Program-made: the position numbers and the translations under genes
Shown: piece after piece, positions 2,369 to 57,501 of the stretch
Position numbering within the stretch: position 1 is the first letter of the stretch
How the letters are laid out: each line of letters begins with the position of its first letter
The notes under the pieces: model-generated
What the model was told of the DNA's origin: nothing
Seen by the model: the letters and a program-made list of their open reading frames with translations, nothing else
Databases searched by the model: none
Source of the DNA: Eledone cirrhosa
Taxonomy: Eukaryota
Length of the DNA stretch: 64,000 bases
Direction: 5' to 3'
Assembly: GCA_964016885.1 (NCBI GenBank)
Contig: OZ024746.1
Coordinates: 64,666,001-64,730,000, forward strand

Positions 2369-2395
2369 CAAATATTTATTAAAATAACAGATTAA

Positions 2396-2446
2396 AGTTT
2401 AAGCAAAGAATTGCTGCTTTCACCCTTAACGGGATCTTCTGAAACT
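2396..2446 (-). ncRNA. Inverted copy of the U4A hammerhead-like fold
   Basis: Reverse complement of 2845-2895 with one loop substitution. Confidence 0.5.
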
Positions 2447-2844
2447 AACAAAGTCAATCTGTAAACGCAGAAGTGGATATTTAAAAAAACGTTGCAACCG
2501 GAGGAAGACAGGAAGACGATACTTTGGTTCGTGGAAACGTTCCCTGGCAAAGAACGGGAAAAAACGAATATAATACGTCATTAATAGGAGCGGTGAAAAA
2601 CAATTACATGCAAAGACAGGACCACGTTTATGGTATAAAAGAAGTCGTAGATTAATGTTCTCTTAGGTGGTTCATAGAGACGTTCTCTGGCAATGAACGG
2701 AAAAAACGAAGATAATACGTCATATGTGGAACGTGGAGAACAATTGCACGCAAAGACAAAACCACAAAAATGGTATAACTGAAGTCGTAGACTAAAATTC
2801 TAACTAGGAAATATCCACTTCTGCGTTTACAGATTGACTTTGTT

Positions 2845-2895
2845 AGTTTCAGAAGATCCCGTTAAGGGTGAAAGCAGCGATTCTTTGCTTAAACT
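2845..2895 (+). ncRNA. Hammerhead-like fold with non-canonical core CAGAAGA (U4A)
   Basis: agttt-CAGAAGA-t ccc gttaa ggg t-GAAA-gca gcgattctt tgc-TT|aaact. All three helices form, but core position 4 is A. Confidence 0.5.
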
Positions 2896-4363
2896 TTAAT
2901 CTGTTATTTTAATATATATATATATATATATATATATATATATATATATATATATATATATAGGAAAAGAGTCAGGACTCTGACGGCAGAGCTCAAGCCA
3001 TTTCAACGACTATTTCTGGACTGAGCTCTGCCATCGGGGTCCTGACTCTTTTCCTATTACCCACTCTACTACCCAAAGTATCGAGTACTCTGGTGCATTA
3101 TGGTCCACCTGGTTCCTTACCACACTTCCTTAGTTATATATATATATATATATATATATTGCTTATCTCTGGATTAATACTCCAACTAACATAGTAATAT
3201 TTGTAATCATGAAGACCTCATTTCCCTCTTGTAATATATGAGCCTGTTATTAAATGGTTTATTGAATCTACTGCTGTTACTTAGCCTCAGATCAGGCCTA
3301 TCATCAAAGGCATTCTAGCCATGAACATTCTGTCATTAAAACTATCTAAGGTGTTCTTTTTTAAGTCAGTCGGATGTAATCTGAAGGAAAAGTGGCAGGT
3401 ATTTTTAGTAAGTCCAATGACTGCTTAGAGGCTCCCTTGTCAGTTGTTGTTATTCTCAGTAGACTGAAAGTAAATAGGGAAGAATTTAAGGGGGATGCCT
3501 AGCCCATGCCAATATGGAAGGTAGATGTAAAATAATGAAATAATGACGAAAACTGCTATATTGCCCACAGGGTTATAAATGACCCTGTAGAATGGGGGGG
3601 GGGGGGGGGGGTAAGGAACTATTTTAGTATTTTTTCTTTTTATCTTTCTGCATGCTGTAGTGTTACAGAAAGTAAGAGCTGATTCTGGGGGATAAGTTGG
3701 AAGGCTTGTCCTGGCATGAGAGCTTTCAGAAAGAAAGAGCTGTGATTCGGTGACAAGACAGAAGGCCTGTCTAAGCATGAGAGCCATGTGGCATCAGGGA
3801 TTTCCTTGATATCATTAATCCACATTTTTCTATGTCCGCCTCTAATCTTGTGGCCAGACATCTTAGTGTTATGTCTATATATTAATTTCAACAATGTCAT
3901 TATTCCGTGTGTCATAATTCTCGATTATCATTGGTTCATAGGTTTCAAACGACTCCGCCCACCTCAACGACGCCAAACTTAAATTAATATGCATAATGCC
4001 AATGAGGGAGTGAGAGGGGAGAGGCAAAGTGAACGCTGTGTTTGGATACACTGTATATGTGTCAATGTAGAGACGTGTGTGTGTATGGAAATAAGAGTGG
4101 AAGGAAAGCAATAACTATTAACATGTGTGCGTGTGTATGTATGTGCGCATATGTTTGTGTACGTGCGTGCATGCAGTGTTCTACAGAAAGTAAAAACTAT
4201 CAACATGTGTGAGTGTGTGCGTGTGTGTGTATGTGCGGCATCCCACAATCGCCACGCAGTTTATCTGTCTGTGTGCCTGTCTGTCAGTCTAACATACACA
4301 GAGTTGTGAAGGGAGTAAATAGGGACCTTTCTTTACATTGACGGACATCTTTTATATTAATTA

Positions 4364-54099: not shown

Positions 54100-56379
54100 G
54101 TAAGTAAATCACAACCAACCATTTAGTATTAAAGTTACAGTCTAGGACAGTGAGTTAGTGAAAATGTTAGAGCATCAGACATGATGCGTTGTGTCTTTCT
54201 TGGTAGGGTCATTTTGTATTCTGCATTTATCTGCTATATCTCTAGTGCCAAACTATATTGATCTTTGCCTTTCCCTTGGAAAACACCAGAGAGATTTGTT
54301 TACATGGGTGACTATTGGTCTTTCATAAAAAAAACCTTTCCAGGCCTGTGCCTGAGAGATGAACTTTTCATGTTCAAATTCAAAGGTTTACAAGGCATAC
54401 AGACCTTTTCGAAATATCAATACATCATCATAAATTAAAAATAAACCTGATAGTTATGACTACAAATTTTATCCTTCCTATGTAGATTATAGATTAGTGT
54501 TTTTGAAGATAGATAGATGAAACCTTGGTCAGATGAAGTGAGGCTGTGGAAACTGAAATATGTTGTAGTAATAGTAGCAGCCACAGCCACTGCGTTCAGC
54601 TTCAGATCAACTATGGTTCGATAGACCTATGATTAAAGGTATTCCCGATCTGACAATTCCATCTTTTCAGGCATGATGTATCAATTGTGTTTTTAATAGT
54701 AGTGTGTGATTCCAGGGAAATGTTTCTGCTATTTCTAACAAGTTGAGCAACCACATAGAGACATCTTTGTTGGGTCATACATTACAGAATAAATATCTGG
54801 ACTGTGAATAATTAATATAAGAAGGGGATTATATCCCTCTACTTCTGCTTTACAAGTAATCTAATAACCTGTTAAAATTAGTTGCCAAATCACCCCCTAA
54901 TCAACCCTAGCAGCTTAAGAAAGAAAAGAAAGCTTTGGATAATGTAGTTTGAGATACATTATGTCTAAGAGGGAAAAGTCTTCGGGATTACAGCTAATGT
55001 GTTGCTAAAGAAAAAAAAGACAAGTAACTCCACTGTATCCAAGGGAAGCTCATAAATAATAAATGAATTGTATGTGGTGTCTTGGTAATGAATATAAGGT
55101 ACTGAATTGCTGACAACATGGTCATAGGTTCAGATCTTACCACTGTCATGATACTGCACAATTGAGAAAAATAACTAATTCTACTTGCTCCAAGTTGACT
55201 GAATGAACAAAAATAAAATATAGATTTCACTCCTTTATGATTAAGTAGTTAACAGTGGGAATGGTATCCTACTTTAAACATGTTGCTCTAGTTAATAAAT
55301 CAAGCATGCAAGAAAACGGTAGAGATAAAACAGTTTCAAAAACATATATTTAACTTCCAAATAGCATACTGGGTGTCCCTGGTTTAGAATATACCATATC
55401 CCTGTATGTTGTAAGTGGCAACTAAAATGGCTGGCACCAGGATGGGCATCCAATCATAAAACATTACCTTAAAAAGAATTCCATGTTGGGTATCAATCTT
55501 TTCATAGGGTTCATAAGGCTAACCTCTGCTAATGTGCTCTGCTTAAGGCTAATCTCTGCTTAAAAGGTGCAAGCGTATGTGGTGTGTATAGTGTGTGGAG
55601 GTGTATGTGTACATGTATGTAATATAAAACTTCCAAATAACATGGTTGTTGAATAAAAATTAAATACCTTACTACTAACTAGATTTGTAAAATAAAAAAA
55701 GGTGTTATTGCGGATGTAATAATCAGATAAGACATAATGCAGGGCACTTATTTTCCAAATGACTGAGAGGAAAACAAACAGCTGCTTTTTGCCTGCCCAG
55801 AAAAGTCTTATAAACCACCAATCTGTCACTTGATTCCACATATATGTTACATATAAAGGAAGCCCATTCAGTAGCTTGGTAAAGACTTACTCAACATATT
55901 GAGAGAGCCCTAAATAGTTGATTAACATACTAGAATTTGTATTGAAATCTCCCTCAAGTTACATCCTCTACTTCTCTTGTCATCCCTACTATATCAGGCT
56001 TTACATTATTTTCCTTCAAAGAAAGACAAGTGTCTGGTATGGTTGATTTGTCACTCCCCATCCCAAATCAACTAATTGTAATTTTTTTTTTTTTTGTTGA
56101 AACTTTATAGATTAACTTTCATCAATGCTGACCATTACCAGTTTTCCTGAATTCTTTATCTAACCTACTGTATTTTATACTGATTCAGATTCCACTTTAT
56201 ACATGTTGCCTGTTATAGTTCCACAAAACTGTATCTCTCCCTAATTCTCTCTCCCATTTATGTTGTAATTTAACTCCAGTTCAGACCTCATTAAGCAGAC
56301 CTATATAAAATCAAAGCCATTCTGACCACAAGCAACCCAATTTCTTTTTCAGTCATATTGTATTTAGTATTACAATATA

Positions 56380-57042
56380 CTAGCAGTGGTACCCGGCATT
56401 GCACGGGATAAGGTATTTTGGAACATGGGCCGCCAACAGACCTAATCGTAGAAAAATTGCATGCCTGGACAATATGTAAAGAAAATAAACCGAATACTAT
56501 TGATGGCTGGATAATCTAAGATTTTCCTCAATGAAGCAGGAAAAAGGCAGGTTTTCACCTAATGCGGGCCCTAGGGGATCAAGGAACTGAATTTTTTTTT
56601 ATGTGCATAATATGCCTTGAAATTTCAGGAAAATCGGCTAGTCGTAACGCCTCAAAAAGCCCTAAAAAGCTGAAAAGAAAATGTTTTTCACCTAATGCAG
56701 GCCCTAGGCCATAAAAAAGTTGGATTTTCTTTGCTAACGGTATGAAGAAGAGACTGACTAATACATAGTTACAATTTCAAGGAAATCGGTCTGACGTAAC
56801 GCCTCAAAAAAACCCTAAAAAGCTGAAAAAAAACTCAGTTTTTCACCTAATGCAGGCCCTAGGGGATCAAAAAGTTGAATTTTTTTAATGTGCATAACAC
56901 TCCCTGAAATACAAGTAATACATATGTAAAATTTGAAAAAGATCGGTTGAGTACTTCTCGGGTTTCACACACACACACATACACACATACATTCATACAT
57001 ACATACATACAGACATACATACTCAGTTTTATATATATATAT
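56380..57042 (-). mobile_element. Non-autonomous Helitron-like element with three internal ~130-155-bp subrepeats
   Basis: Minus-strand 3' end cccgtgcaatgccggg...CTAG|T. Repeats ttttcacctaatgc(g/a)ggccctagg lie near 56552, 56685 and 56841. The 5' end is tatataaaactga. Confidence 0.65.
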
Positions 57043-57297
57043 ACATTCATTTAAATTATTGATGTATTGTTTTATTGATATTTTTTATCTGTTTGTCCCG
57101 AATCTTCTATTATCGATTTTTTATCGTATGGTTGATTGTAGACTTGTTCTATGTGTGACGGTATTTTAACGATAGTTATAGCTCTGATTCATCTGAATTA
57201 TTGAGCCCTCTGCCGCTCATTTCGAATATTGTTTATCGTGAACTCGTGCGCCGATTTTTCGATACTCGATCTTTCTAATATATATATACATATATAG

Positions 57298-57501
57298 ATT
57301 AAAATAACAGATTAAAGTTTAAGCAAAGAATCATTGCTTTCACCCTTAACGGGATCTTCTGAAATTAAAAACATCAATCTGTGAACGCAGAAGTAAATAT
57401 TTTGAAAAATGTTGCAACCGAAGGAAAACAAGAAGACGATACTTTGGTTCGTGAAGACGTTCCCTGGCAATGAACGGATAATAGCGAACATAATACGTCA
57501 T
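57298..57501. mobile_element. Partial diverged copy of the 2377-2914 element
   Basis: Colinear similarity to 2378-2581. Confidence 0.75.
57316..57366 (-). ncRNA. Third copy of the U4A hammerhead-like fold
   Basis: Minus strand reads aattt-CAGAAGA-tcccgttaagggt-GAAA-gcaa tgattct ttgc-TT|aaact. Core and stem II are unchanged; substitutions fall in loop III and distal stem I. Confidence 0.48.

Follow-up and report, generated by a model that had tools for sequence, protein, structure and literature searches.

Five high-copy hammerhead families in the introns of an Eledone cirrhosa gene: likely tails of Penelope-like elements and candidate non-LTR retrozymes

A stretch of 64,000 nucleotides from Eledone cirrhosa (contig OZ024746.1 of assembly GCA_964016885.1, positions 64,666,001 to 64,730,000 of the forward strand; here called the window) carries nine type I hammerhead ribozyme motifs within the introns of a single host gene. 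The motifs fall into five families, all of high copy number. Three appear to be the 3' ends of protein-coding elements and two to be units that carry no open reading frame (ORF), and in all likelihood they were inserted into intronic TA runs by target-primed reverse transcription of the Penelope type.

An initial annotation, made from the letters alone, had placed nine type I hammerhead folds in the window, and all nine strings were found where it had placed them. Family A comprises the motifs at 2396, 2845, and 57316; B, those at 15536 and 17154; C, those at 21321 and 21395; D, the one at 43148; and E, the one at 50462. Six lie on the minus strand (2396, 15536, 17154, 21321, 50462, and 57316) and three on the plus strand (2845, 21395, and 43148). 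A type I descriptor, composed only after the nine motifs had been seen (C3-G8 or U3-A8 core, GAAA, UH site, helix I of at least 4 bp, helix II of at least 3 bp), accepts seven of the nine, rejecting those at 21321 and 57316 because of a mismatch in helix I, and adds two weak AT-rich matches that the annotation lacked, at 1721-1771 (minus strand) and 9183-9250 (plus strand). Against these seven, dinucleotide shuffling of the window leaves a mean of 0.04 matches per window (25 shuffles), Markov shuffling leaves 0.1-0.2 (3 x 40 shuffles), and the reversed window has none. The cores of B, D, and E are canonical for type I (CUGANGA, GAAA, and UH, with helices I-III in type I order), and that of C has the U3-A8 swap. 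Helix III is palindromic and of the dimer type in B, C, D, and E, in keeping with the annotation and with what was already published for such ribozymes. On the evidence of sequence, the nine can be regarded as confirmed type I hammerheads of the Penelope/retrozyme kind. No hammerhead family is found among the Rfam matches listed for the whole window (150 of 520), which are dominated by microRNA matches to TA repeats, and three scans confined to the A, D, and E regions found none at E<=5 either; B and C were covered by the whole-window scan alone. A repeat finder run across the whole window was uninformative because of a long TA array, described below.

The families are far from single-copy. 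Exact matches in the genome to core patterns of 30-32 letters number 18,366 for A, 5,712 for B, 11,469 for C, 11,239 for D, and 280 for E, all of them lower bounds (the E pattern represents one subfamily), and the reversed patterns find 0 matches for each family. The five were said to share only the catalytic core and the topology of the helices. This is so for the ribozyme regions, which are unrelated, but the proteins of B and C are nevertheless 47% identical.

Those proteins come from a search for Penelope ORFs with reverse transcriptase (RT) and GIY-YIG domains attached to the same ends, which succeeded for A, B, and C (for A by motifs). The ribozyme lies 930 nt downstream of a 713-aa ORF in family A (locus L158), 386 nt downstream of a 695-aa RT and GIY-YIG ORF in B (L153), and about 1,050 nt downstream of a 775-aa RT and GIY-YIG ORF in C (L152); inverted copies are present at L152 and L153. 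In the window, the copies match the 3' ends of such ORF-bearing elements at 87-99% identity, and the 5' extent of copies tapers gradually, most of those examined being short stubs. Because of this identity and the gradual fall-off, the stubs would be truncation products. The view that all the families are non-autonomous mini-elements can therefore be kept for D and E, which are ORF-less units, but not for A, B, and C, which are the 3' ends of families with ORFs for RT and endonuclease (EN).

The B and C proteins have the protein traits by which Neptune-type elements are recognized: RT together with a GIY-YIG domain at the C terminus in one ORF, a linker of the form CX2-5CxxC (here CX4CxxC), the CCHH cysteines, and DKG. 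Another mark of the type, a pseudo-LTR (long terminal repeat) or an inverted 5'-truncated copy, is present in both families as inverted copies. Pfam places GIY-YIG above its cut-off and RVT_1 below it. B and C thus appear to be Neptune-type Penelope-like elements, set apart from Nematis by motif alone. The A protein has RWR, DKT, CxCx5C, CxxC, and CxH, and CCHH is absent, in agreement with the published definition of the Hydra clade (an RWK-like motif, DKT, a CxCx5C linker, CxxC and CxH, no CCHH, plus a GIY-YIG-like EN at the C terminus). Insertion at (TA)n (28 of 30 loci) and a 3' hammerhead are further traits of that clade, and its motifs occur in 114-118 of the 120 A-protein homologues listed. 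By its motifs, family A would be a Hydra-clade Penelope-like element. Among the first 100 genome matches listed for C, helix III is a perfect palindrome in 96, one of the two window variants in 3, and the other in 1; the variants fit CpG decay or a minor subfamily. The idea that the two window copies of C, with their complementary helix III variants, act as a heterodimer was rejected: the palindrome is standard, and the two copies lie on opposite strands.

Families D and E are built otherwise. D is made of units of about 460 bp arranged head to tail, each with its own ribozyme (loci L161/L162 on C28 have 24 ribozymes within 18 kb), and a second D subfamily, 77% identical, has a unit of about 421 bp. 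E consists of head-to-tail units of 534-544 bp, again with one ribozyme each, in subfamilies about 74% identical. Non-coding tandem units of a few hundred bp with one type I hammerhead apiece point to non-LTR retrozymes as the likely class of both. The E copy in the window, at 1.24 units, fits a circular or multimeric template. In E, moreover, the helices covary: four pairs have changed on both sides, 65 of 65 cells are paired, and 0 of 500 shuffles reach the score (5 rows). Three motifs are conserved in D units 74-82 nt 5' of the ribozyme, in subfamilies down to 77% identity: the octamer ATGCAAAT, the box CCGTTAAT, and a box that is TATA-like. The octamer and box motifs occur at L163, L233, L151, L232, and L209 and are absent from the truncated window copy. 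These boxes may constitute an internal promoter of the small nuclear RNA (snRNA) type. Newt satellite 2 has an snRNA-type promoter, a point that our literature search did not confirm.

Whatever their coding capacity, the families have similar ends. In 30 loci per family, taken as the best matches to the window copies and not by random draw, a TA-like run adjoins the 3' end in 28 (A), 25 (B), 29 (C), 26 (D), and 26 (E), compared with 622 of 3,000 background windows, which bears out the TA association that had been claimed. In 13, 19, 15, 10, and 14 of the 30, respectively, there is also an inverted copy upstream. For Penelope-like elements, a preference for TA, truncation at the 5' end, inverted copies, and tails have already been published, and parts of PMC4209133 describe pairs of ribozymes on opposite strands, 100-700 bp apart, as well as the U3-A8 core.

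Published work suggests how such ends might arise. An EN would nick (TA)n, and reverse transcription would begin slightly 3' of the ribozyme but would mostly abort, so that most stubs would carry the ribozyme as a passenger. Transcripts of D and E would be cut to monomers by ribozyme dimers formed through the palindromic helix III; the monomers would then circularise and be copied in trans by some Penelope-like RT, and the copying of circles could produce inserts longer than one unit, such as the E copy in the window. For a Poseidon element in vitro, according to portions of a published report, hammerhead cleavage was dispensable for insertion, and cleavage needed the protein. Portions of PMC3088659, PMC6765202, PMC9901934, and PMC11167929 were also drawn on.

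Judged by their arrangement, the nine motifs would derive from about six insertion events. The A pair (2396/2845) is one inverted insertion and the C pair (21321/21395) another. The junction common to both B copies occurs in 2 of 30 B loci, both within the window, which argues for local duplication. As for the picture of islands bounded by TA, each event does have its 3' end at a TA run, but the D copy, the 57316 copy, and the plus arm of C each have one side that adjoins sequence other than TA. The long TA tract at D lies partly within the element. The features are as follows.

2286..2809, minus strand: 5'-truncated 3' end of family A (3' untranslated region (UTR), hammerhead, and tail), from a putative Hydra-clade Penelope-like element; matches the 3' end at L158 with 89% identity across 568 nt.
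2396..2446, minus strand: hammerhead A, its core position 4 occupied by A, its helix II with U.U at the base, and its site UU (by descriptor).
2809..2911, plus strand: short inverted end of family A, from the same insertion event as 2286..2809, pairing with 2383-2487 in RNA (by alignment and folding).
2845..2895, plus strand: hammerhead A in host sense, predicted to be locked in a long inverted-repeat hairpin (by descriptor and folding).
9535..27593, no strand: degenerate (TA)n array of 18 kb, containing the B and C insertions and other repeats.
15413..15617, minus strand: family B, 200-nt 3' stub of a putative Neptune-type element, with the hammerhead at 15536-15574; 98.5% to L153.
17033..17236, minus strand: second family B stub, probable local duplicate of the first by its shared junction, with the hammerhead at 17154-17192.
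21251..21366, minus strand: family C arm, with the hammerhead at 21321-21358, U3-A8 core, helix I broken (by descriptor and folding).
21362..21500, plus strand: family C arm, 3' stub of a putative Neptune-type element, with the hammerhead at 21395-21432, helix III palindrome mutated; 94% to L152.
24846..24896, minus strand: family A tail fragment with no ribozyme.
25086..25168, plus strand: inverted truncated insertion of a sixth family, with only the 3' half of a hammerhead, the same 3' half as in a family intact at other loci.
26219..26313, minus strand: family A tail fragment with no ribozyme.
43115..43439, plus strand: family D, partial unit of a candidate non-LTR retrozyme of about 460 bp (ORF-less tandem arrays elsewhere), with the hammerhead at 43148-43190 in host sense.
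50397..51072, minus strand: family E, about 1.24 units of a candidate non-LTR retrozyme of about 540 bp, with the hammerhead at 50462-50543 and a terminal direct repeat of about 126 nt.
57278..57505, minus strand: older family A stub, with the hammerhead at 57316-57366, helix I broken; 87% to L158.

Nesting of different hammerhead families in the same TA tracts is frequent elsewhere (L012, L106, L116, L154, and L156). The TA array of the window also holds two copies (23276-23630 and 26523-26850) of a repeat like a short interspersed element with a tRNA-like head, which is found beside D at other loci, and another repeat has two copies at 19445-19925 and 23717-24312 and recurs at the end of an ORF region like that of a long interspersed element (LINE) in L162. 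A further high-copy repeat forms an inverted-repeat insertion at 2962-3134, adjoining the A insertion between TA runs. The window also has a fragment of a piggyBac-type transposase at 33358-34050 (minus strand; Pfam DDE_Tnp_1_7, E 6.6e-22) and a 60-nt poly(C) run at 37671-37730.

That the motifs lie inside one gene also proved correct. A single reading chain with an RNA recognition motif (RRM) and a polyglutamine (polyQ) region spans exons at about -79.4 kb, -20.3 kb, 11506, 51957, 53659, and 63073, and a GT-AG splice joint from 52636 to 53657 is present in contigs of run X5, which is RNA-like (it has the spliced joint) and contains contigs resembling A and E. The exons within the window are these.

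11506..11588, plus strand: exon with the RNP1 half of an RRM.
51957..52638, plus strand: exon with the end of the RRM and a polyQ region; 77-79% to Octopus bimaculoides protein P0001, with a joint in an X5 contig.
53659..54099, plus strand: exon with polyQ region.
63073..63230, plus strand: last coding exon; 94% to P0001.

No host exon was seen within positions 1-9500 of the window. The sole protein match of the polyQ exon is the Octopus bimaculoides protein, which marks the genome as octopod-like; the gene presumably resembles DAZAP1/Hrp48. Broken RT fragments of LINE type lie in its last intron (60168-60959, plus strand), and a 44-bp tandem repeat of 5.1 copies (63203-63426) overlaps its stop codon.

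All nine motifs are intronic, three in host sense (2845, 21395, and 43148) and six antisense. Folding predicts full pairing of two sense copies, 2845 and 21395, with their inverted partners. The helices of D are predicted to form in context, and its helix III requires a second ribozyme. Since only three of the nine are in sense, two of them predicted to be trapped in inverted-repeat hairpins and the other a lone copy of the dimer type, the ribozymes probably do not cut the host pre-mRNA. In intronic RNA, the inverted insertions at 2383-2911 and 21251-21500 would fold into duplexes some 105 and 115 bp long, possible substrates for adenosine-to-inosine editing.

Nor is the cluster special to this gene, as had been supposed. 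In sixty evenly spaced 10-kb stretches (600 kb of the 3.0 Gb genome), the descriptor finds 66 matches in 26 stretches, or 7.0 per 64 kb, equal to the density in the window, compared with 2 in the reversed control. The matches come from many more families than A-E (15 of the 66 come from one D array), in keeping with the annotation's diverse genome-wide population that Rfam does not detect. The five exact cores predict 1.0 copy per 64 kb, and the window contains 7 exact matches, an excess in line with the 18-kb TA array and with pairs born of single events. Extrapolation weighted by contig class gives about 325,000 hammerheads (bootstrap 186,000-504,000), or 258,000 with the D array excluded, so the genome may have hundreds of thousands of them, in the range 2-5 x 10^5. 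By rough comparison, the descriptors being different, parts of published reports give 126,247 hammerhead motifs in axolotl and about 9,000 hammerheads in Xenopus tropicalis (PMC4209133). Where the helix III insert is even and of 4-8 nt, 27 of 36 ribozyme groups have perfect palindromes, something the descriptor did not demand. The further families form 52 rough groups (L179-L238, L001-L163), including a very abundant family whose AT-rich helix I has 8 bp, one with a C4 core, several with U3-A8, and, at L238, a tandem retrozyme of about 310 bp.

Several observations sit poorly with insertion by a Penelope-type process. The A protein has neither a Pfam match nor a sequence match in PDB, and Pfam gives no match for three of its homologues either. 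The sampled copies of A, B, and C scarcely differ within each family, and none of the three shows a compensatory change in a helix; covariation in D is weak: one pair, with 39 of 500 shuffles reaching the score (6 rows), which is not significant. Covariation as a check on the helices was therefore supported by E alone, and the rows for both E (5) and D (6) were taken from descriptor matches among many copies, a choice that favours pairing. In 30 loci per family no linked RT/EN ORF lies near D or E (the EN ORF close to E in L124 lies beyond a TA tract and is that of another family). Apart from simple repeats, D and E are not similar in DNA to A, B, or C, so a candidate driver was not found there, although beyond those loci D or E could have a partner that does carry an ORF.

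D and E might instead be satellites that unequal crossing-over and DNA repair have spread, their ribozyme being only what is left of a Penelope pseudo-LTR. Long local arrays of the D/E type do exist (L161/L162, L233), and a 2026 preprint, in part, traces retrozymes back to pseudo-LTRs and admits that tandems may expand locally. However, dispersed copies of D and E have TA-abutting 3' ends, 5' truncation, and inversions like those of autonomous elements, and the stems of E covary across subfamilies about 74% identical, which leaves the satellite account unlikely. At the other extreme, all five families might be dedicated non-autonomous mini-elements with ends of their own, as the initial annotation held. 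This applies to D and E, and short non-autonomous subfamilies could be hidden among the many stubs of A, B, and C, but the near identity of those stubs to ORF-bearing 3' ends and their gradual 5' fall-off are as truncation predicts; extended to all five, the proposal is distinctly unlikely.

Retention of the intronic ribozymes to regulate the RRM gene by cutting its pre-mRNA is very improbable. Three copies are in sense and the D helices are predicted to form, but the window copies are young (87-99% to other copies) and two are decayed, the density is that of the genome sample, six motifs are antisense, and two of the sense copies are predicted to be sequestered. As for chance matches in AT-rich, repeat-rich DNA, one might point to the lack of an Rfam match, the deviant cores of A and C, and the two weak extra descriptor matches. 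The shuffled and reversed controls, near zero, already refute the notion, and, in agreement with the literature, the ribozymes occupy the 3' UTR that follows Penelope-like ORFs, with palindromes and covariation; chance is hardly worth entertaining. Penelope-type insertion thus stands as the preferred account of all five families.

Family A departs from the canonical core, which has U at position 4: 18,366 exact copies carry A there, 72 carry U, and 109 carry C or G. Among the 72 U4 matches, the four loci examined depart from the reference at only 1-3 sites and resemble point mutants, so an older U4 subfamily of A is unsupported. Because U4 is rare and the loci examined look like point mutants, A4 would be the founder state of the family. 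In folding predictions, which ignore tertiary contacts, dimers, and help from protein, an inactive pairing has a probability of 0.3-0.7 with A4 (helix I, <0.1) compared with <0.1 with U4 (helix I, about 0.2). Parts of a mutagenesis study of a type III hammerhead report low activity for changes in the CUGA turn, except for the 3-8 swap, and a natural U4C viroid variant is described as weakened yet viable. The Hydra rows of File S2 in PMC8557442, as far as they go, have U4 in 26 of 26, but U4 was demanded by that search. A family with a C4 core is also present in the genome studied here. Family A itself occurs in another organism as well, in run X6. It is plausible that U4A weakens the family A ribozyme. 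Hammerhead variants in Penelope-like elements are reportedly the subject, by its title, of a 2017 article by Lunse et al., and U4A may be described there.

A bolder reading may be put forward tentatively, with more doubt than conviction: that the genome holds some 300,000 hammerheads, about one per 10 kb, that the largest of the five families (A, with more than 18,000 copies) spread with a ribozyme disabled by U4A, and that D and E keep working ribozymes under selection. If so, circular-RNA parasites such as D and E would depend on cleavage, and the Penelope element behind transposition would not. What the hammerhead does in Penelope-like elements is debated in print as an open question, and A, beside sister families with canonical cores, offers a direct natural test. 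The main value of the present results lies nonetheless in annotation, as they add five new families, none recognized by Rfam; of interest to specialists are the density of hammerheads and a family, A, fixed for a non-canonical core.

In the literature searched, with subscription papers mostly outside its coverage, neither retrozymes from cephalopods nor a family with U4A turned up. Parts of PMC8557442 already list a hammerhead and (TA)n targets for Hydra-1_Obim of Octopus bimaculoides, and Penelope-like families are annotated in Octopus vulgaris, in a report whose main text, in part, leaves ribozymes unmentioned. Family A resembles the Hydra-clade elements described in parts of Craig et al. 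2021 (PMC8557442), Hydra-1_Obim included, in its single ORF of about 710 aa with RWR, DKT, CxCx5C, CxxC, and CxH and no CCHH, in its 3' hammerhead with the U.U in helix II and the UU site of several rows of File S2, and in its (TA)n targets and inverted truncated copies. It differs from those rows in the A4 core, a longer helix III, a 930-nt 3' UTR, and at least 18,366 core copies. B and C share with the Neptune-type elements treated in portions of Cervera & de la Pena 2014 (PMC4209133) the RT with C-terminal GIY-YIG, the CX4CxxC linker, CCHH, the minimal palindromic helix III, the opposite-strand pairs 100-700 bp apart, and the prevalence of single truncated copies; the U3-A8 core of C is like that reported there in Schistosoma. 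They differ in being new families, Neptune being told from Nematis by motif only. D and E, like the metazoan non-LTR retrozymes presented in parts of Cervera & de la Pena 2020 (PMC7229834) and of the preprint of Li, Clavereau & Pollet 2026, are non-coding head-to-tail units of low GC with one type I hammerhead each and a dimer-type helix III, and the U.U at the base of helix II in D resembles axolotl HHR_Amex2. Their units, however, at 421-544 bp, extend past the 150-450 bp quoted in those sources, their junctions are TA-targeted and of Penelope type, and E has a long two-part helix II. TA targeting, inversions, and the dimer-type helix III were known, then; what is new is five families of known kinds, an unusual density, and one unusual core variant.

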